From contig OY969559.1 of assembly GCA_963701075.1 (NCBI GenBank), forward strand, positions 1 to 64,000: a DNA stretch of 64,000 bases, in the 5' to 3' direction. This document shows positions 2,380 to 10,804 of this stretch, in pieces. The DNA is from an uncultured Nitrososphaerota archaeon. GTDB lineage: Archaea; Thermoproteota; Nitrososphaeria; Nitrososphaerales; Nitrosopumilaceae. A model generated the notes under the pieces. That model was not told the origin of the DNA and made no database searches. It saw only the letters and a list, made by a program, of their open reading frames with translations. Every line of letters starts with the position of its first letter. The first letter of the stretch is position 1. The translations under genes were made by a program, and so were the position numbers.

Positions 2380-3258
2380 TCAAGTCAGAGACTTGCAAAG
2401 TTGGACAAGTCTCTGTTTCTCGTCCTCTTCTTTTCTTACTATCTTATCGTATTTTTTTAGGTTGAGGTATTGTTTTATGCTACATTCCAGTATCTCGCGC
2501 AAGACCTCAGGTCCTAGGGCATCAAGCTCCCATGATTTATCGCCATGTTCTGCCCTGTATCGAGGAGATCGTGTATCGGACCTTTTGGTAGGATTTGGTG
2601 GAAGCTTGTATTCTTCTACTTGGTTTCTTGTGAGTGCTATCTTTTCCACTTTGACATTGACATAAAAGCGATTCAGTCTTTCCTGTATGTCTCGTACCAT
2701 GTCTTCACCACTTGGGTCATGGTCTCCAAGGTATAGAATAACGCAGTTCTTGTGTATGCCATATGCCTGTCTTGTCATACGTTGGGCAGACTCGAATATT
2801 GCACTTGCAGAAGAATAGCCGCGATTTACAAGAAGATTGACATGATATTTTCTGGTTATTGGCTCTATCACACCAGACAATGCATCTTTTTCTACCCAGA
2901 CCTCGATGTAGTAATTTTGATTTTTCCACCTGTCGAGTCTGTATGAATTTGCAGCTGCCATTGCAAACTCTTGCAAGTTTTCAAAGTGAGCCGGAATCCT
3001 TGACACTCTCCCTCTGTCCTCTATTGCCTCCCAGTCAACCATTCCTGCCATCCTTGCATCTGTAAGTAATCGGCTGAGTTTTTTGTATTCCCTGGGCAGA
3101 TTTTCCACGATATTTTTTGAAACAAGTTGATAATACAGCTGCCTTAGTGTCAGCGAATAGCCCTTGTTTTGGTACTCGGCAATTACTTGGGTTACTTTGT
3201 CTAGCAAGGCTGCGGTCCTTCCACTGAATCTTTTTTTAATAAAATTAATTCTTGTCAT
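2380..3258 (-). CDS. TopoVI-A/Spo11-like winged-helix + TOPRIM domain protein
   Basis: TLRQLYY (WH tyrosine), IEVWVEKDAL, NRGYSS, ILYLGDHDPSG (DxD) and WELDAL motifs. Start placed at ATG 3258. Confidence 0.85.
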   Translation of the reverse strand: MTRINFIKKRFSGRTAALLDKVTQVIAEYQNKGYSLTLRQLYYQLVSKNIVENLPREYKKLSRLLTDARMAGMVDWEAIEDRGRVSRIPAHFENLQEFAMAAANSYRLDRWKNQNYYIEVWVEKDALSGVIEPITRKYHVNLLVNRGYSSASAIFESAQRMTRQAYGIHKNCVILYLGDHDPSGEDMVRDIQERLNRFYVNVKVEKIALTRNQVEEYKLPPNPTKRSDTRSPRYRAEHGDKSWELDALGPEVLREILECSIKQYLNLKKYDKIVRKEEDEKQRLVQLCKSLT

Positions 3259-3479
3259 AAAAATATTGCAGGTTACATTACCACAACAGGCTATTAGCAT
3301 TTTTGAAGTCACCAAGCTTGACTGGATGTTGAGAGTCATTACACCAAGCGATCTAGTAAATAACGATCTCTTGACTATAAAATAATTTCTGAAAAAGATA
3401 AGAGAAATTTGGAATGTTGATAGGTAAATTTCATTAGCTGAGCAAGATACACTATACCTCTGAAACTGCCTTTGGTTTT

Positions 3480-4805
3480 TCAGACAAGCTGCAGTGCCAT
3501 CTCAAGTGTCTCCCTGCATGCCTTCTCTGCCGCAGAGTCGCTATCAACTAACGCAAGTGGAGTTGTGATGCCCCTAAAGTCTTTGAGATTCTCAGTAGAT
3601 ATTACCGTAGCCCAGACTCTACCGTTTGCAACGTTTCTGACAAAGAGAATCATGGATACGCCAAACTTTTTTGCAGTCTTGATCTCGGCCAGCAGCTTGA
3701 TCTTTCCAATCCACCTCTGCTTTGCCGAGCCATAGACTGAGAGGGTCAGAGACTTGAAGGCACCTACGCACTTTATTGTACCATCAATGTGAAATTCAAA
3801 GTCAGGTGTTCCATTGAGCAGGCTGCACTTGTGATTCTTGCCTTGCAATGAAAGATATTCTGAGAACCGTAACTGCTCCTGATTTCCCATCTCCCTGTTA
3901 CGAAGACCGTCTTCCCGTGTCAGTTTATGTGTGTGATTAGACTTTTGGCCACTTTGGTAGATTTGTGGTTGTGTATCAAGTATATCCAAAGGCTCTATTG
4001 CTTGTGTTTCTTTTGACCCCGATACTGCATCATCTTTGTTTGCTGCACTAGTTTCATGCAAGTCAGATTCTAGATCAAGAAGATCCAAAAAGACATCCAG
4101 TCTGTCCAAAAGTAATTCTGCTTGTTGCGCAAGTTTTGTTTGTATTTCGGAGCTGTCCTTGTGCTCGTTGAGCCATTTGTCATATTGGCCAACAATCATT
4201 TTGTACTTTTCATCGCTTGATGTCATATCAGATGTCATCTCATTCAAGGCCTGTTCTGTATGATCTACACTTTTTTTCAATTCAGCTAGTGAGGTATCAT
4301 TAGTGGTCATAGCCCACCCCAATAAGCGGACAAATGAGGTATGGGTATGCATATCTTTCCGCATGACCGACAACTCATTTTTTAGAGGCTTGAGCATCTC
4401 TTCTGATTGCCTATTTGCTATTTTTATGACATCAGACTCTCTGTCTCTGATTAGACTGGAATGCTCTAGCATCCTGTGATATAATTTCCAGGATGCAAGC
4501 AATGAGGCTGCCAGTGAGCCAATCCAGATTACCACAAAAGTAGACAGGGCTGTTGATTGGTCAAATAACTGTACATAGATTAACAACAACACAAATGAAA
4601 CGGCAATAAATATTCCTGCAATCGAAAGTATTCTTCTTAGAGATTCTTTCAATGTATCTTTGCTTAGATGGCTTCCAACATCCAGTATGACATAGAATGT
4701 GATAATGCCGACCAGTCCTTCTGTCGCTATGTTCAATTGGTTTGCATCCAGAAATGTTTCACCACCTTGAAAATATGTGTACCATTTAAGGAGAAAAAAT
4801 CTCAT
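3480..4805 (-). CDS. Membrane protein: about 3 N-terminal TM helices, coiled coil and a C-terminal PD-(D/E)xK-like domain
   Basis: Hydrophobic segments in aa ~25-105, heptad-rich aa ~120-245, and C-terminal GNQEQ..L...G..GTPDFEF....VGAFKS resembling an Hjc/restriction-endonuclease fold. Confidence 0.6.
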   Translation of the reverse strand: MRFFLLKWYTYFQGGETFLDANQLNIATEGLVGIITFYVILDVGSHLSKDTLKESLRRILSIAGIFIAVSFVLLLIYVQLFDQSTALSTFVVIWIGSLAASLLASWKLYHRMLEHSSLIRDRESDVIKIANRQSEEMLKPLKNELSVMRKDMHTHTSFVRLLGWAMTTNDTSLAELKKSVDHTEQALNEMTSDMTSSDEKYKMIVGQYDKWLNEHKDSSEIQTKLAQQAELLLDRLDVFLDLLDLESDLHETSAANKDDAVSGSKETQAIEPLDILDTQPQIYQSGQKSNHTHKLTREDGLRNREMGNQEQLRFSEYLSLQGKNHKCSLLNGTPDFEFHIDGTIKCVGAFKSLTLSVYGSAKQRWIGKIKLLAEIKTAKKFGVSMILFVRNVANGRVWATVISTENLKDFRGITTPLALVDSDSAAEKACRETLEMALQLV

Positions 4806-4900
4806 CTAATTTCTAAAAAAACCATTGTAGACAATGCAGACATTCCTTGAGATGCATAATACTCAACAGGAATACAGAATAGATAACCACTAAGATCCAT

Positions 4901-4942
4901 GGTAAACAAGGGTAAACGTTTTTTTGTTTATCATTATTCACC
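4901..4942. repeat. Imperfect 17-bp inverted repeat containing tandem GGTAAAC (operator-like)
   Basis: GGTAAACAAGGGTAAAC (4901-4917) versus the reverse complement of 4926-4942 (GGTGAATAATGATAAAC): 13/17 match. Confidence 0.5.
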
Positions 4943-5074
4943 TTCACTGAAATGTCTATCCTTTCATGCCTGGAAATGGTATACAACCATCCCTTCCCAG
5001 CAAGATATCATGAATATTTGGAATTATTTGTAAAATCGCAATAAAACATACTCTATAGTATATGATGGGCTGTT

Positions 5075-5099
5075 ACTAGTAACTAGCGGTGCCACTAGT
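5075..5099. repeat. Direct repeat copy 1, just after the ATPase stop codon
   Basis: ACTAGTAACTAGCGGTGCCACTAGT, 21/25 identical to 6235-6259. Confidence 0.8.
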
Positions 5100-5103
5100 C
5101 ATA

Positions 5104-6226
5104 TTAACTTAGGAAGGAGAAACGCAAAAGCGGATCAGAAATAAAATATTCTTCAGAAGTTTTTTCAATAAAACTTGACTTTAGAAGGCTGTCTAGCAGG
5201 TCATTAAAGTTCTTGTCGTATATTGTCTCTCCTGATTTCAACTCTAGATAATCTTTCAGAGATTTCCAACCAGATCGCCTGGTGGCAAGTGCTGTCATTA
5301 TTGTTTCATATCTTGACTTGGCAGTTCGGTTTTCCAAGAATTTGTCAAATTCAGATCTGGCAAGTATGGCACCATCTTTTTTTGTTTCCAGGATGTATTT
5401 AGAACTGATTTGTTTTTTTCTAACGCAGGTCAAACCAAACTTGATCAGCCAACCAATTATTCCTCCTAGTTCCTCTGATGCCTCTGAGATTACATGAGAA
5501 TCTTTTTGTGTTATCTTGATTTTTTCTTGTGCAAAGCCCTGTACTAGAAAATTCTCACTCTGGGTCTTGTCTAACGGTTTTATCTTTATCTCCCATGCAA
5601 TTCTGCCAAAAAGAGGTGATTTTGGGTTTTGTAATCCTAGAAATTCATGCAACAATCCAATTTCAGAGCCAGTAAGAATCAATATTATATTTTTACAGTC
5701 TATCATAAATTGAAGCAAATATGCTATTCATGTCAACGTGTTGTGATTTTCTAAATTCCTGTGCTTCGTCAACTGCTACTAAAATAATCGTGTTGTTATT
5801 TTTTGCCCATGTGTTTAGCTTGTCAAATAGACTTCTAAAGTCTAATTCATTTTTTGATTGCCAGTCAAAATTTACTCCCAAGGGACCAACAGTTACTCCC
5901 CTCACAGATCTAAATATGTCAACAAACTTGGCTTTCATGGACTCGTGTGAATCAAGAAATTGTTGAATGCTACTTTGAAAAAGGTTTACTACATCTTTTC
6001 TTGTTATGTGTTTCTTTGATCCCAAATCACGAAGATCAATTATTATGTTGAATTTAGATCTCTTGGTGATTACCGTTTTCATGACTGAAGTTTTTCCTAC
6101 TCGTCTAAGCCCCGTGATAATTATCAGTGGGGACGGTCTGCTTATGGCATCTTCTAATTCTGCAACCTCGTTTTTTCTTCCAAAGAGATACTTGAGGTTG
6201 TCTTTGGGTCGTTCATCAAACAGCAA
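5104..6226 (-). CDS. Archaeal ATPase (P-loop ATP-binding protein with C-terminal wHTH); +1 frameshift near 5699 is probably an assembly error
   Basis: N-terminus MLFDERPK..LFGRKNE, Walker A GLRRVGKTS, Walker B VAVDEAQ, then ILTGSEIG and PLFGR in the second ORF. The two ORFs join at the AGTCT at 5697-5701. Confidence 0.88.
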
Positions 6227-6234
6227 GTGTTATC

Positions 6235-6259
6235 ACTAGTTACTAGTGGTACAACTAGT
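6235..6259. repeat. Direct repeat copy 2, just before the ATPase start codon
   Basis: ACTAGTTACTAGTGGTACAACTAGT; includes the palindrome CACTAGT-T-ACTAGTG. Confidence 0.8.
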
Positions 6260-6541
6260 TAAAGTAATCGGGATTGTAAAAGGCGTTTGTAGATACAGAT
6301 TCTAAAATTTCTGATAAGTTCAAATAAAGATTCTGACTCAAAATTGATTCCCATTCATACTTTTAGTTTATTTTCATAAACCTTTTGATCCTACAAAAAT
6401 AATTTTGACAAGGTGTAGATCTTGTTTTCTAAAGATTATCCATATAATGCTAAAGAATTGAAAATATCGTTTAGCCTTTTAGTGTCTTTTATTTCTCCAT
6501 TTGTGATTTTTTAACTCAAACACATCTGATCTAGTCTTTAA

Positions 6542-6919
6542 ATGGAAACTAGATTTTATCCTGTAATGAAGACAGAATATATCAAATCATTACAAGATGA
6601 GCTTGACAGGCTCAAAACAATTACAGGAATCAAAAAAGAGTTCAAAATAGTCTGGTCTCCAAGACAGAATGGACAAAAAGAGGGTGAAGTCATAGGCAGT
6701 ACAATCTACATCTATTCCACAAGCCCTCATATTGCACTGCAGACTCTGAGGCATGAATTTTTCGATCTAATTGTTAGCAATGCCATCAAACCATACATGA
6801 ATCTGGTAAATGCTCTATTGTCAGTTATAGGAGAGAGCACTTACAAGAACAAAGAGGAGGCTGTAGAGTCCTTGTTGTTGCTGTGTAAATCTACAGCAAA
6901 TGAACACCTTGCATCTTGA
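6542..6919 (+). CDS. Hypothetical protein with a zincin-like HExxD motif
   Basis: IYIYS...LQTLRHEFFD resembles SprT/M48-like minimal metalloprotease folds with the second His replaced. Confidence 0.6.
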   Translation: METRFYPVMKTEYIKSLQDELDRLKTITGIKKEFKIVWSPRQNGQKEGEVIGSTIYIYSTSPHIALQTLRHEFFDLIVSNAIKPYMNLVNALLSVIGESTYKNKEEAVESLLLLCKSTANEHLAS

Positions 6920-6959
6920 AATATTCCTAGTCCATCCAAGTTCCAGTTTTAATGAATTC

Positions 6960-6994
6960 ATTACGCCAAAAGGCGTTACGCCAAATGGCGTAAT
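6960..6994. repeat. Tandem overlapping palindromes downstream of the integrase
   Basis: ATTACGCCAAAAGGCGTTACGCCAAATGGCGTAAT: two 15-bp units, each with a TACGCC..GGCGT inverted core. Confidence 0.75.
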
Positions 6995-7045
6995 ATGTGA
7001 ATTAGAAATATCCTGTATGCAAAATTGCATGCTTAAATTATTTTG

Positions 7046-8365
7046 CTAGACGAGCTTGCGGATTAGGATCCTGCCACTTGAAAGCTCTTTTACCACGTCC
7101 CAGCCTTTTTTGACATACAGTACAAGATTGTCTTCATCGACCAGTAGACTGTCGTATTTTTCGTTCTCTTTTTCTTTCATTGATTCCTGGATTGCAATTT
7201 TGATTGCCTCAATCTTGTTCTCGACTGGAACCGGGCCATCATTTCTTTGCTTTTCTATTTTTATCTTCAGTGGATCTATTCCATAGAGCGTGGCCTGCTC
7301 CTTCCACATCTCAAGCAAGAATTCTTTTTTGTCTTTTTCTTGAATCTCTTCTGTGGATACAAACTGCTCGCTTTGCTGGAAAGCTCGCCTCATGTCTTCA
7401 ATCATTTCATCTGATAGTCTTCCCTTGTTTGTGGTATACCTTGCCTCCATGTCGCCCTTGTGACCCATAAAGAACTGCCTGTATGCATGTGCGATTTTTC
7501 CGTGACTTTCTGCCAGGAGCAGCTGCGTGTCAAAGTACGATCGTAGAACATACGGTCTTGCCTTCTTTACAGACCAGATTGCTTTTCTTATCTCTGCCGT
7601 GATTGCTTTGGTTGTAAGAATTGGATTGCTTGATCTATTTCCTTTCTGGTCATATCCCCTGCTTACTGATATGACAGGAGAATCGCTTGCAAGAGATTCG
7701 CCGTCGGTAATGCGGGCCCTGAGATACCCAAGAAGATACTGGCACCCCTGGTCTGTAAGAAAAGTGATGTACTTGTGTCTTGCCTTGCTAAGCGATGGCC
7801 TGACTAGAATCATTGCAGGGATTCTTTTGAAATGTATCTCGTTTTGTTCCATGACAAGATCTGAAATATCTGATATCCTCAATGCGTCAGAGCCATCATC
7901 TTTTCCAAGCACCTGTGGCCTCAGCCCTGCAAATGCCATGAGGCTGATGCTTGCCCTGCCTCTTCTTGTTGCGGCATTTAGGATATCTTTTAGCTCCTGT
8001 TTTGATGGTATCTTTTCATTTTGTAGTGTGACTGCAATGTCAGAGTTTGCTATCTTTATCTTTCGTCTCAGCTCGATGTAGTTGTAGAAAAGCCATGACT
8101 TGATTGCCTTTAGTATGTCATCAATGTAGCTTGGAGCATACTGTTTTGATTCAAGGTATGATACATGATCATGCAGGAGATCTTCAAGCTTTCTTGCATC
8201 CTCTTTTCCAATTGATACAAGCTCCTTCGGAGTTGTCTTGTACTGGATACAGAAGAGGTTCAATCTTCGCAGTCTTACGCTTGCAGTCAGCTTGCTTCCC
8301 CTGCAAAGGTTCTCGTACCATCTCCTAACGTCTGCATCTTCAAGGAGTCTTGTACATTTTTGCAT
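7046..8365 (-). CDS. int: Site-specific tyrosine integrase
   Basis: AGLRP (R), RPYVLRSYF (YxxR), MGHKG and ARYT (catalytic Y), with an N-terminal core-binding domain. Adjacent to the tRNA; the frame stays open upstream into the tRNA (track ORF to 8455). Confidence 0.93.
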   Translation of the reverse strand: MQKCTRLLEDADVRRWYENLCRGSKLTASVRLRRLNLFCIQYKTTPKELVSIGKEDARKLEDLLHDHVSYLESKQYAPSYIDDILKAIKSWLFYNYIELRRKIKIANSDIAVTLQNEKIPSKQELKDILNAATRRGRASISLMAFAGLRPQVLGKDDGSDALRISDISDLVMEQNEIHFKRIPAMILVRPSLSKARHKYITFLTDQGCQYLLGYLRARITDGESLASDSPVISVSRGYDQKGNRSSNPILTTKAITAEIRKAIWSVKKARPYVLRSYFDTQLLLAESHGKIAHAYRQFFMGHKGDMEARYTTNKGRLSDEMIEDMRRAFQQSEQFVSTEEIQEKDKKEFLLEMWKEQATLYGIDPLKIKIEKQRNDGPVPVENKIEAIKIAIQESMKEKENEKYDSLLVDEDNLVLYVKKGWDVVKELSSGRILIRKLV

Positions 8366-8414
8366 ATCTACAAAATTTTTCTTGTTTTTAAGGGGTTTCG
8401 AACTGTATAGTAGG

Positions 8415-8486
8415 TGGACTGGAGGGGATTTGAACCCCTGACCCCCCGCGTGCAAGGCGGGTATTCTACCGCTGAACTACCAGCCC
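8415..8486 (-). tRNA. tRNA-Ala(UGC)
   Basis: GGGCTGG..CCAGTCCA acceptor with G3:U70, anticodon arm CCCGC-CTTGCAC-GCGGG, GGTTCAAATCC T-arm. Confidence 0.97.
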
Positions 8487-9560: not shown

Positions 9561-9911
9561 ATGGATTATGAAAAAATATGCAAGAAAGTAATGGAACTTG
9601 ATCCCAAGATTAGGTTTGCTGGCATCATAAATGAAAAAGGAAGATTGTTTGCAGGAGGAATGAGAAATGGGCTCAAATCTCTTGAGGATTCAAGAGACGA
9701 TGAAATGTTGTACATGGAACTGGTACTTAGGGCAAAAATGAGGCGCGAGTTTGACAAGGTATTAGGACCAGTAAAGTTTGCCATGTCATACAGGGAGAAA
9801 GTTATAATCATGAGTTTTCCTGTGAATGACAACGTTCTGTTATTGTCTACCGAGAAAGGGATTGATTTCTCAGACATTCCGTTTAAGATAATGAAAATGC
9901 TGTCTCATTGA
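9561..9911 (+). CDS. Roadblock-like thaumarchaeal protein (DUF6659-like)
   Basis: DPKIRFAGIINEKG..GGMR..MRREFD..LG...SYREKV pattern. Confidence 0.75.
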   Translation: MDYEKICKKVMELDPKIRFAGIINEKGRLFAGGMRNGLKSLEDSRDDEMLYMELVLRAKMRREFDKVLGPVKFAMSYREKVIIMSFPVNDNVLLLSTEKGIDFSDIPFKIMKMLSH

Positions 9912-10804
9912 TTCTGCGAACTTTCAAAAACGGTCTGTGACCATTGCAGTAGTGTTTCCAAGTCGTCTGAGATAAAATCTGCTGCAATCTTTGGCTTTTT
10001 TGCAATTTTGCTGCATAACGCAAGATAGAGATTCTTGCCAAATTTCTCCTTGCTTGCAGTAACTGCTTGAGAGAAGAACTTGATTGCCCCCTCTGTGGAA
10101 GAAAATATAGCAACGATCATCATTCCCTCTCTTTTGATCCAGATCTTGTTAAGAAATCTCTGCAAATCTATATCAAATAACACATCTATTGCAGAAGACA
10201 TATCCCCCAAAAGCGATACTTTCCATTCCTCAGTCTGAAATGCTGATGAGGCAGCTTGTGCAAGAAGGGAGTTTTGATAGTCAGTTGAAATAATGACTAT
10301 GTTCTTTTTTGAATTTACCTCTTTTTCTGATAATCTAATTAGGTATATTGACGACGATATTATCTCGTCAAGAAAGTTCTTTTCAGATTTTCCTATCTTT
10401 CCATCTTCATACGAGTTTGCTACAGCATCTATGGCAGGTACGATGACCTCATTTACCAGTTTAGACGGATTTGCCCCAGAGTGCAGCGATGTTCTTACAA
10501 GATTGTGTGCTTCATGACTCGCTGCAGACAGTACATATTCCAGATACCTGTTTTTTACCTGAAAAAGATCTGCGGGAAAATCTAGATGATCTACGCCTTT
10601 TTCAACAAACCACAGATTCACCATACCAATATTTTTTTGTTTGATTAGGCCTTCTGCTGCAAAAACTTTAAGATATTTTGACATTGTTACTCGGTTAACA
10701 CGAAGTTTTTTGGCTATCTCTATACCAGTAAGACCGGTTTTAGATTTACTTAGGACATCGATTAATTTTTCCTTTATTTCTTCCGGATTGTATCCTCGTG
10801 TCAC
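9905..10804 (-). CDS. HTH transcriptional regulator with B12-binding-like domains
   Basis: N-terminal wHTH (GIEIAKKLRVNRVTMSKYL), cap helices (VIVPAIDAVANSYEDG) and a Rossmann-like C-terminus. Confidence 0.75.
   Translation of the reverse strand: MTRGYNPEEIKEKLIDVLSKSKTGLTGIEIAKKLRVNRVTMSKYLKVFAAEGLIKQKNIGMVNLWFVEKGVDHLDFPADLFQVKNRYLEYVLSAASHEAHNLVRTSLHSGANPSKLVNEVIVPAIDAVANSYEDGKIGKSEKNFLDEIISSSIYLIRLSEKEVNSKKNIVIISTDYQNSLLAQAASSAFQTEEWKVSLLGDMSSAIDVLFDIDLQRFLNKIWIKREGMMIVAIFSSTEGAIKFFSQAVTASKEKFGKNLYLALCSKIAKKPKIAADFISDDLETLLQWSQTVFESSQNQ

Follow-up and report, generated by a model that had tools for sequence, protein, structure and literature searches.

Paired repeats around an ATPase_2 gene of a Nitrosopumilaceae archaeon: a candidate element-gene-element module

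What is the role of two copies of one short repeat that stand at the two ends of a single archaeal gene? The question is raised by a stretch of 64,000 nucleotides (positions 1-64,000 of contig OY969559.1; hereafter the window) from the genome of an uncultured, ammonia-oxidising Nitrososphaerota archaeon (Nitrosopumilaceae; whole genome 1,915,938 bases), in which a gene for an ATPase_2-family protein, here called ATPase_a, lies between two such repeats, sites A and B. An earlier note on this DNA had read the repeats either as recombination sites of a mobile single-gene cassette or as paired operators bound by the C-terminal winged helix-turn-helix (wHTH) of the ATPase itself. We propose that the repeats mark the two ends of a self-contained module of approximately 1.2 kb, ordered element-gene-element, in which the 5′ element would serve as the operator, the 3′ element as the boundary, and the whole as a unit of rearrangement. 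Our own belief in this explanation is evenly divided. In the following, WIN denotes the window locus, L numbers denote loci, G numbers denote genomes, and the letters a to e denote cassette types.

The two repeats and the gene between them

The features around which the question turns are as follows (window positions):
5104..6226, minus strand: the ATPase_a gene, encoding an ATPase_2 (AAA+/STAND-like) nucleoside triphosphatase (NTPase) with a C-terminal MCM_C-type winged helix, 373 amino acids (aa) if intact
6224..6261, minus strand: the 5′ element of type a, with site B inside; two 19-nt units, each ending in ACTAGT, and the dyad CACTAGT-T-ACTAGTG
6259..6264, minus strand: a TATA-like box (CTTTAA on the gene strand) at -33 to -38 from the start, as read from the sequence
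5064..5103, minus strand: the 3′ element of type a, with site A inside; a second copy of the element, 4 nt beyond the stop codon

Site A (ACTAGTAACTAGCGGTGCCACTAGT, 5075-5099) and site B (ACTAGTTACTAGTGGTACAACTAGT, 6235-6259) both lie on the plus strand and are identical at 21 of 25 positions, a match that was reached in none of 100 shuffles of the window. The ATPase gene runs on the minus strand. Its stop codon (5104-5106) is 4 nt from site A, and its TTG start (6226-6224), which aligns with the ATG of homologues starting MLFDERP, is 8 nt from site B. The coordinates, orientation, identity and distances claimed earlier were all reproduced. The sites had also been called palindromic direct repeats; the direct alignment is indeed the best one, but because the sites are partly palindromic they can be aligned in the inverted sense as well (17/20 and 18/22). 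Both sites lie within longer elements, which consist of two units with a period of 19 nt (approximately 5064-5103 and 6224-6261; repeat family D20), and the D20 units at 6226-6242 and 6245-6261 show 82% identity. The right half of site A, ACTAGCGGTGCCACTAGT, matches site B, and its left half is degenerate.

When the whole genome was searched with up to three mismatches, sites A and B were the only a-type sites. The 11-nt core CTAGT(A/T)ACTAG has exactly two occurrences in the genome, and of the six genomic clusters with at least two ACTAGT within 30 bp, sites A and B make up two. A chance origin of the repeats is ruled out by the shuffles, the genome-wide uniqueness, the core count and the ACTAGT cluster count. 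Two further candidates were rejected: a genome-wide repeat or general regulon, because the a-type motif has only two copies in the genome, and an operator left at site A by a deleted tandem paralogue, because no ATPase-like coding remnant occurs beyond site A. Folded as single strands, both sites on either strand give weak structures (-4.9 to -5.3 kcal/mol, z -1.1 to -1.8), which are matched by 12 to 34 of 200 shuffled sequences; this agrees with the earlier statement that the sites are unlike attC.

In the assembly, one extra base at approximately 5699, within a conserved YDNCKN stretch, breaks ATPase_a into two overlapping frames (5693-6229 and 5104-5727). This base is missing in all four of the metagenome runs and in contig L087, which is 97.6% identical to window positions 3606-7725 and contains an intact gene of 373 aa. 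The extra base is therefore likely to stem from an error in the assembly or from a private mutation. The Pfam family PF01637 matches the N-terminal half with 38.0 bits (E 2e-9), above the cut-off of 33.2 bits, and the C-terminal half with 28.9 bits (E 1.3e-6), which alone is below it; the intact relative L016 reaches 60.2 bits. The C-terminal MCM_C wHTH is matched with E 4.3e-10. A profile of homologues (query 1-373) aligns with the structures 2FNA (E 3.8e-72, residues 2-356) and 2QEN (E 3.5e-60, residues 1-348) in the PDB. With a P-loop AAA+ core, a C-terminal winged helix and likeness to both structures over its full length, ATPase_a is a member of ATPase_2/COG1672, to which SSO1545 (2FNA) and the Walker-type ATPase of Pyrococcus abyssi (2QEN) belong. 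The primary paper on the SSO1545 structure is that of Xu et al. (2009), as cited in an excerpt of PMC5760070. The profile spans the whole length of 2FNA and 2QEN, which leaves no space for an additional catalytic domain. A family of ATPase_a paralogues in the genome was considered and rejected: there is no second copy of ATPase_a, and PF01637 scores above its cut-off at ATPase_a only. Our literature searches returned no recorded function for the 2FNA and 2QEN proteins and nothing on start-codon elements, bracketing repeats or mobility in the ATPase_2 family.

The start-codon element and its downstream copy

Homologous loci were collected from 300 other genomes of the same family (five with a match), from one genome per species of Bacteria and Archaea (27 loci, among them some of Vulcanisaeta, Pyrobaculum, Hadesarchaea and Ignisphaera) and from metagenome contigs (62 loci); Nitrosopumilaceae are represented as well. 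In most of these loci, a two-unit direct repeat or a dyad of 35-45 nt adjoins the start codon. The 5′ element was scored as an ungapped self-match, with a threshold of at least 9 within -50..+3 of the start codon. This threshold was reached in 31 of 48 distinct loci, whereas each control stretch, the first at -160..-107 and the second within the gene, yielded 1 of 48; the commonest period was 19 nt, and because homologous loci are related, the p-values of this test overstate the independence of the counts. Across Archaea, the sequence of the element is specific to the lineage and its position is conserved. Examples of its forms are AGTAGTGGTACTACTTAA twice, CTTGTGCTACCCCAAG and its complement, and ACAGGGGGGTAAC twice. 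Within Nitrosopumilaceae, one relative (L011/L017) contains four upstream copies of a perfect 25-nt palindrome, ATGACCGCTAGT-A-ACTAGCGGTCAT, and has the half-site ACTAGYGGT in common with the window.

In many homologues, A/T boxes (TTTATAA, CTTTTAA) stand immediately upstream of the element (judged by eye and uncounted). In the window, the 5′ element occupies the gap between the TTG start and CTTTAA, which may act as the promoter box. The element thus lies where an operator would be expected, over the presumed promoter and start region, and it keeps this position among homologues. Since it fills the gap between the TATA-like box and the start and changes together with the encoded DNA-binding protein, it resembles an autoregulatory operator. 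Judging from these sequence comparisons, we consider site B most likely to be the ATPase gene's own operator, and we propose the 5′ element around it as a putative operator and module boundary in one. Of the paired operators suggested earlier, it is site B that this co-varying, family-wide element supports. For the element type of L016, all of the matches with 0-1 mismatches (five units in three elements) are confined to its own locus, and the possibility of a regulon with this motif was rejected because its other hits equal those of a reversed-pattern control.

A copy of the element beyond the stop codon was scored as a 5′-3′ shared element against a null of non-cognate pairings, the 99th percentile of which is 12. 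Of the 49 loci in which the gene is intact and the flanks are long enough, L016 (score 22) and WIN/L087 (score 13) alone exceed this null. L086, the flank of which is short and which stands outside this count, scores 38, with a 33-nt repeat that is identical at both ends and a likeness that runs into the start codon. L016, L086 and L087 are the closest relatives of the window, and all of them have the 3′ copy. Flanking repeats at homologous loci, which the earlier note had led one to look for, are therefore widespread at the 5′ end but restricted to these few loci at the 3′ end. The element types are ACTAGT in WIN/L087, TGGTACTACTACCAGTAA in L016 and the identical 33-nt pair in L086. Within each locus the two copies are alike and between loci they differ, with proteins that are only 52-57% identical. 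The 5′ and 3′ copies thus change in concert between lineages.

The surroundings of some homologues add further details. L016 has a C-terminal ATPase remnant upstream, and HNH_2 and Fic genes lie beside it. L028 was considered as a rearranged form of L016 and rejected, since it matches the left part of that locus (remnant, element and HNH gene). Downstream of the ATPase gene in L013 and L018 there are repeat units of approximately 100 nt, with GACTAGTCGTAAC and its complement around tandem CCGGCCCACGCACGG; these belong to a different repeat family.

Sister cassettes, rearrangements and the island

The element-gene-element architecture recurs with unrelated element sequences. In G321:C4 and G317:C2, a different ATPase_2 gene, ATPase_b, sits between the next two genes, and in G321:C6 a third P-loop-wHTH gene, ATPase_c, occupies the position of the window gene. 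ATPase_c is bracketed by a direct repeat of approximately 55 nt that consists of its own 5′ element including an ATG (score 32). ATPase_b has terminal inverted repeats of 25 to approximately 55 nt (inverted scores of 32-58) and a direct unit copy over its stop codon. The genome of the window itself harbors cassettes d (981,541-982,789; score 25) and d2 (1,228,766-1,230,014; score 17), each between copies of the palindrome ATGTAGACATTGTAGACA-ATATT-TGTCGACATTGTCTACA. The 3′ element overlaps the stop codon in the b and d cassettes, and the architecture of type e was judged from the sequences themselves rather than from the element score. PF01637 was also run against 33 additional genomes of the genus. 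Of the 11 loci from other genomes that lie above the cut-off and have enough flank, six, L178 among them, score at least 12; none of ten P-loop loci below the cut-off does so.

Comparison of these loci supports the conclusion that sister cassettes have been lost, inverted and re-sited at their elements. Between cassettes d and d2 there is 80% identity over 1252 nt, the limits of which are the outer edges of the elements, and G077 has a third copy that is delimited in the same way. G305 has an element, the gene ATPase_e and a second element where the window's own genome has a solo e-type element, TAGTACACCCCCGTGTACT-TAGTACACCCACATGTACT; the integrase region is 95% identical between the two, and a b-like palindrome follows in both, after spacers of unequal length and different sequence. 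The same array also holds solo c-type and b-like elements, the cognate genes of which do not occur in the own genome. Relative to the same flanks, ATPase_b in G035 and G298 is oriented opposite to that in G321, G094, G169, G304 and G317. The b cassette is approximately 99% identical between genomes whose flanks are 82-97% identical, and no target-site duplication was found at its ends. An insertion of ATPase_b into the middle of a TATGCA-AAAA-TGCATA palindrome was considered and rejected, because G304, G035 and G298 show the full right repeat of approximately 55 nt with the palindrome intact beyond it; the G321:C4 type is a secondary deletion.

The mobility proposed earlier is thus supported by the sister cassettes, with element-to-element homology, a solo/full pair and both orientations; for the window cassette, the evidence is indirect. 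Between 5064 and 6261, the window differs from L087 at 5 of 1198 nt, compared with 96 of 2922 nt outside (Fisher p 1e-9); the divergence is 0.4% in the cassette and 3.3% in the flanks, and a single indel contributes some of the outside differences as gap columns. Sites A and B show no differences to L087. Homology to L086 begins at 6258, at the outer edge of site B, and an a-like module occurs in other contexts in L016 and L086. We infer that the a-type cassette of the window moves by the route of its sisters.

The earlier note had suggested that the motif be sought around other genes. In the own genome there are only the two copies that flank ATPase_a, but solo a-type elements were found in three other genomes of the family: G241 (in a tandem array), G157 and G137. 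In G241 (G241:C115; L005 1470-1565), approximately 3.5 tandem copies of a 22-nt unit, ACTAGTTACTAGTGGTACCAGT, have 18 nt in common with site B; the array is intergenic, beside an open reading frame (ORF) of 137 aa that by eye is PIN/VapC-like, and there is no ATPase gene within 1.5 kb. In G157 and G137 (L003/L004 1501-1525), the site ATTAGTAACTAGTGGTAAAACTAGT is solo and a-type-like; it is flanked by a divergent TFB-like gene and by an ORF of 280 aa that resembles a protein with a B12-binding domain, both judged by eye.

Several features of the surrounding island touch on these elements:
4826..4842, no strand: half d-type element, TGTAGACAATGCAGACA, marking the left limit of the segment that the empty alleles lack (see below)
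7000..7040, no strand: second hot spot, with the ATPase_b cassette of 1.27 kb in relatives and inverted terminal repeats of up to approximately 55 nt
7046..8362, minus strand: divergent tyrosine recombinase, here called Z, assigned by predicted fold, just downstream of tRNA-Ala
8413..8486, minus strand: tRNA-Ala(TGC), found with ARAGORN

At the second hot spot, loose ends of the metagenome runs X1, X2, X5 and X13 at 7000 and at 7038-7046 read into the terminal repeats of the b cassette. ATPase_b is present in 6 of 60 genomes of the genus, and in G298 with a single match, and lies between the gene for a 125-aa protein and the recombinase gene (L071, L074-L085). A near-palindrome of 30+30 nt, TTACGCCAAAAGGCGT-T-ACGCCAAATGGCGTAA, occupies 6947-7007 between the same two genes and is repeated at 982,996.

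A tyrosine integrase some 0.8 kb from the cassette had been noted from the letters; this identification holds by predicted fold only. An AF2 model of Z, built on an alignment of 30 sequences (pLDDT, a model confidence score, 80.5), matches XerA best in Foldseek (5HXY, E 2e-7), followed by IntI (2A3V, E 3e-6), XerH and Cre. Z has the conserved motifs RPYVLR and GHKGDIEARYT and more than 1900 thaumarchaeal homologues, two of which are named site-specific integrase. It has no match in Pfam, PHROG or NCBIfam, and no likeness (BLASTP, E 0.27) to the PF00589 integrase of a second island. The predicted fold suggests that Z is a tyrosine recombinase. From 8414 on, the sequence is conserved in most genomes of the same genus; the left side is variable, and the island leftward of tRNA-Ala is a mosaic among these genomes. 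It is probable that the tRNA-Ala gene is the attachment site of the island and its right border.

The second island (C1:981,300-983,300; L158, L161) begins with tRNA-Pro and a PF00589 integrase (E 3e-12), followed by an element array that contains solo e-type, b-like and c-type elements, the bracketed d cassette, two TATGCAAAA(A/T)TGCATA palindromes and the copy of the 6947-7007 palindrome. In G268:C2 (L173 1880-2000), a solo e-type element and a b-like palindrome occur in reversed order and orientation compared with the own genome, and another gene that ends in a wHTH has a further palindrome, TCATGATATATCATTTGATATATATATCAAATGATATATG, at its 3′ end. G321 (L071, L073) has two copies of this type of island, the first next to tRNA-Ala and the second next to tRNA-Val, with different cassette contents. 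Cassette d2 (L160; C1:1,226,500-1,232,500) is located between the genes for a 719-aa SIR2_2 protein and a 484-aa ApeA-NTD/HEPN protein; from these gene assignments its surroundings look like a defence island, and its flanks are not conserved in 60 genomes of the genus. In d2, the 3′ element precedes the next gene on the same strand, that of the SIR2_2 protein, by approximately 110-135 nt.

Other genes of the window's island encode a MazE/AbrB-like protein (958-1353), a ParM/ALP-like partition protein (1368-2270) and a 319-aa protein (2380-3339) that matches phrog_6247, 'DNA topoisomerase', with E 5e-93. Beyond the tRNA, a 299-aa protein (9905-10804) has sub-cut-off Pfam matches to HTH and B12-binding domains (E 3e-4 to 5e-3). 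A search of a collection of viral contigs yielded no relatives.

The proposed module, its rivals and known systems

Both earlier readings thus find support, and they seem to be two aspects of a single arrangement. According to the explanation that we propose, the winged helix of the ATPase would sit on the 5′ element, the candidate operator, and repress its own promoter. The 3′ element would be a second putative binding site for the same ATPase and the other boundary of the module, and the two ends would be drawn together by the protein bound to them. In Nitrosopumilaceae islands beside tyrosine recombinase genes, such modules are lost, with a solo element left behind, or inverted or re-sited, probably by recombination between copies of the element; the candidate enzymes are the island tyrosine recombinase, XerA and general recombination. 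Both the binding of the ATPase to the elements and the repression that would follow are deduced from where the elements lie and how they vary.

Several observations weigh against this explanation. The two sites of the window are imperfect, with four mismatches in 25 positions and the degenerate half of site A. The 3′ copy is not a family trait, being above the null only in L016 and WIN/L087 among the 49 loci, and L014, L015 and L017 place their extra copies upstream of the gene. ATPase_a aligns over its full length with AAA+ plus wHTH structures only and has no catalytic domain. The sharp edges of homology between d and d2, at 80% identity, could reflect decay outside selected elements. The b cassette is always single-copy, at one site per genome, and its inversion is possible by homologous recombination between the 55-nt repeats. 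Most directly, the empty sites and the circles of approximately 1.16 kb that the earlier note had anticipated were not obtained. Empty alleles exist in G321:C4 and G317:C2, which have 79 bp in place of window positions 4843-6531; these alleles contain no a-type repeat, and the indel ends 232 and 272 bp outside sites A and B. No joint of a circle, a deletion or an inversion was found in the contigs of four metagenome runs from four studies, and no listed loose end falls on a site; contigs cannot reveal rare forms. The left end of the indel corresponds to the middle of a d-type element: the sequence at 4826..4842 matches the element that brackets d and d2, and in G321:C4 and G321:C6 a full d-type palindrome is present and homology to the window stops at 4842. 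Since the loose end at 4988 reads into the apparent start of another ATPase, more alleles exist at this hot spot.

A serious rival, which we judge unlikely although worth real weight, holds that the elements are concerned with regulation only. Sites A and B would then be the auxiliary and main operators of an autoregulated ATPase-wHTH factor, the auxiliary site serving in a repression loop over the gene, as a roadblock to read-through or in the control of the next gene, and gene turnover would be an ordinary process that tends to break at repeats. The family-wide conservation of the 5′ element over the presumed start site fits this rival, as do the variable places of the extra copies, which resemble auxiliary operators (upstream at -100 to -320 in L014, L015 and L017; downstream in WIN, L016 and L086), the location of the d2 3′ element ahead of the SIR2_2 gene, and the failure of the window indel to end at the sites. 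It accounts less readily for the exact 33-nt copy of L086 that runs into the start codon and for the repeat of approximately 55 nt around ATPase_c that includes an ATG, both of which look like duplication by descent rather than convergence. Neither would regulation lead one to expect solo elements without a cognate gene in arrays beside integrases, both orientations at one site, or cassette DNA that is far more conserved than its flanks. If, conversely, the elements are merely core sites of a tyrosine recombinase, either the island integrase or XerA, then the ATPase is cargo and makes no contact with them. Both arrays have a tyrosine recombinase gene alongside, the elements have dyad symmetry and measure 25-40 nt, a solo/full allele pair and an inversion exist, and pdif modules also occur in both orientations and in shuffled sets (excerpts of PMC13141974 and PMC6449649). 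We nevertheless find this idea improbable. At least five unrelated element types (a-e) exist, each with its own ATPase lineage, and one recombinase could hardly read all of them; the idea is weakened for this reason. The wHTH protein is the sole lineage-specific factor inside each module, the 5′ element adjoins the start even in lineages with no 3′ copy or integrase seen within 2 kb, L016 and d2 have no integrase in the stretch examined, and the dyads are built as 12-1-12 or as two 19-nt units, not as 11-6-11.

The remaining two rivals appear far less probable. A role in replication, with the ATPase as an Orc1/Cdc6-like initiator of an integrated element and the repeats as origin recognition boxes or iterons, would suit the AAA+ core with its MCM_C-type winged helix and the ParM-like partition gene of the island; in archaeal pairs of orc gene and origin, moreover, initiator and site co-vary. 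For many thaumarchaeal integrated elements, no replication protein is known, as stated in an excerpt of PMC6563490, and this too counts in favor of such a role. However, the sites bracket a coding sequence rather than an A/T-rich unwinding region, several cassettes and solo elements stand within a single island, d2 lies among defence-type genes with no mobile-element genes in view, and the viral contig collection yielded no relatives; we regard replication as very improbable. Least probable of all, and hardly to be expected, is a role in RNA or single-stranded DNA, as hairpins of untranslated regions (for stability or termination) or as folded attC-like substrates. Each site does contain short dyads, and site A, 4 nt past the stop codon, is in a possible place for a terminator, but the single-strand folds are as weak as described above, most of site B would lie upstream of the start site expected from the TATA-like box, and there is no T-run after site A.

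Returning to the element-gene-element module, we advance a broader claim only tentatively and with more doubt than belief: the ATPase_2-wHTH genes of Nitrosopumilaceae may form a new class of self-specifying mobile cassettes, in which the cassette's own NTPase recognises both boundary elements, the sites act both as operator and in recombination or synapsis, and solo elements are landing pads beside tyrosine recombinases. If this is true, Archaea would have in these cassettes their own equivalent of integrons and pdif modules, with the site specificity coming from the cargo itself. The element-gene-element order, the solo arrays by integrases and the loss, inversion and re-siting bounded by elements suggest that single genes are shuffled in archaeal islands. 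Because several neighbours are of the conflict type (SIR2, HEPN/ApeA, HNH and Fic), the cassettes may be immune sensors or their switches. If the protein synapses its own ends, the module would embody a new principle by which cassettes move, and would offer a compact natural part for genetic tools, which ammonia-oxidising archaea do not have. If the elements serve regulation only, they would still define a clear family-wide autoregulator of the NTPase type with defined operators. ATPase_2/COG1672 is among the commonest uncharacterised paralogous families in Archaea. The conserved element at the start codon, which co-varies with the lineage, provides a predicted DNA target for each ATPase_2 member and makes function directly testable. 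Literature searches, together with excerpts of PMC6563490 and PMC4158269, yielded no description of such elements or cassettes.

How do these modules compare with systems that are already known? The lac operators O1, O2 and O3 and the lambda OL-OR system are examples of autoregulated repressors with auxiliary operators and DNA looping. The window locus is similar in having a main site over the promoter and a second, weaker one approximately 1.16 kb away, with extra copies variably placed in relatives. It differs in that the protein is an AAA+/STAND-like NTPase and in that the second site is a module boundary of the kind at which sister cassettes rearrange. Insertion sequences have terminal repeats that extend over the promoter and the stop codon and serve as binding sites for the protein that the element encodes. 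Here, too, the unit is compact and contains a single gene, one end lies over the promoter region and the other adjoins or overlaps the stop codon, and the b cassette has its long terminal inverted repeats. In contrast to insertion sequences, the module has neither a transposase or other catalytic domain nor a target-site duplication, and the repeats of types a, c and e are direct; the a-type pair aligns best directly (21/25), with the weaker inverted alignment second, and the b repeats are inverted over 25 to approximately 55 nt. With two a-type sites and one pair of b-type repeats per genome, the copy numbers are also not those of insertion sequences or miniature inverted-repeat transposable elements.

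Integron cassettes share with our modules the single-gene unit and the solo sites arrayed beside a tyrosine recombinase gene, and the model of Z matches the integron integrase 2A3V, although its best match is XerA and not IntI. Unlike integron cassettes, the modules show no attC-like single-strand fold and have ends of the same type; integron cassettes are promoterless, whereas each cassette here has a TATA-like box and its own start-codon element, which would act as a promoter region. A parallel in layout is offered by the pdif modules of Acinetobacter, which are moved by XerC/XerD. They are likewise small modules between short dyad sites, found in varied contexts, in both orientations and in shuffled arrays (excerpts of PMC13141974, PMC6449649 and PMC7399989), and their recombinase is likewise encoded outside the module. 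Whereas pdif sites follow one shared design of 28 bp (11-bp arms around a 6-bp spacer) that is served by one Xer pair, the archaeal elements are 12-1-12 dyads or two 19-nt units, of wholly different types, and each module has an element of its own together with a DNA-binding protein that co-varies with it.

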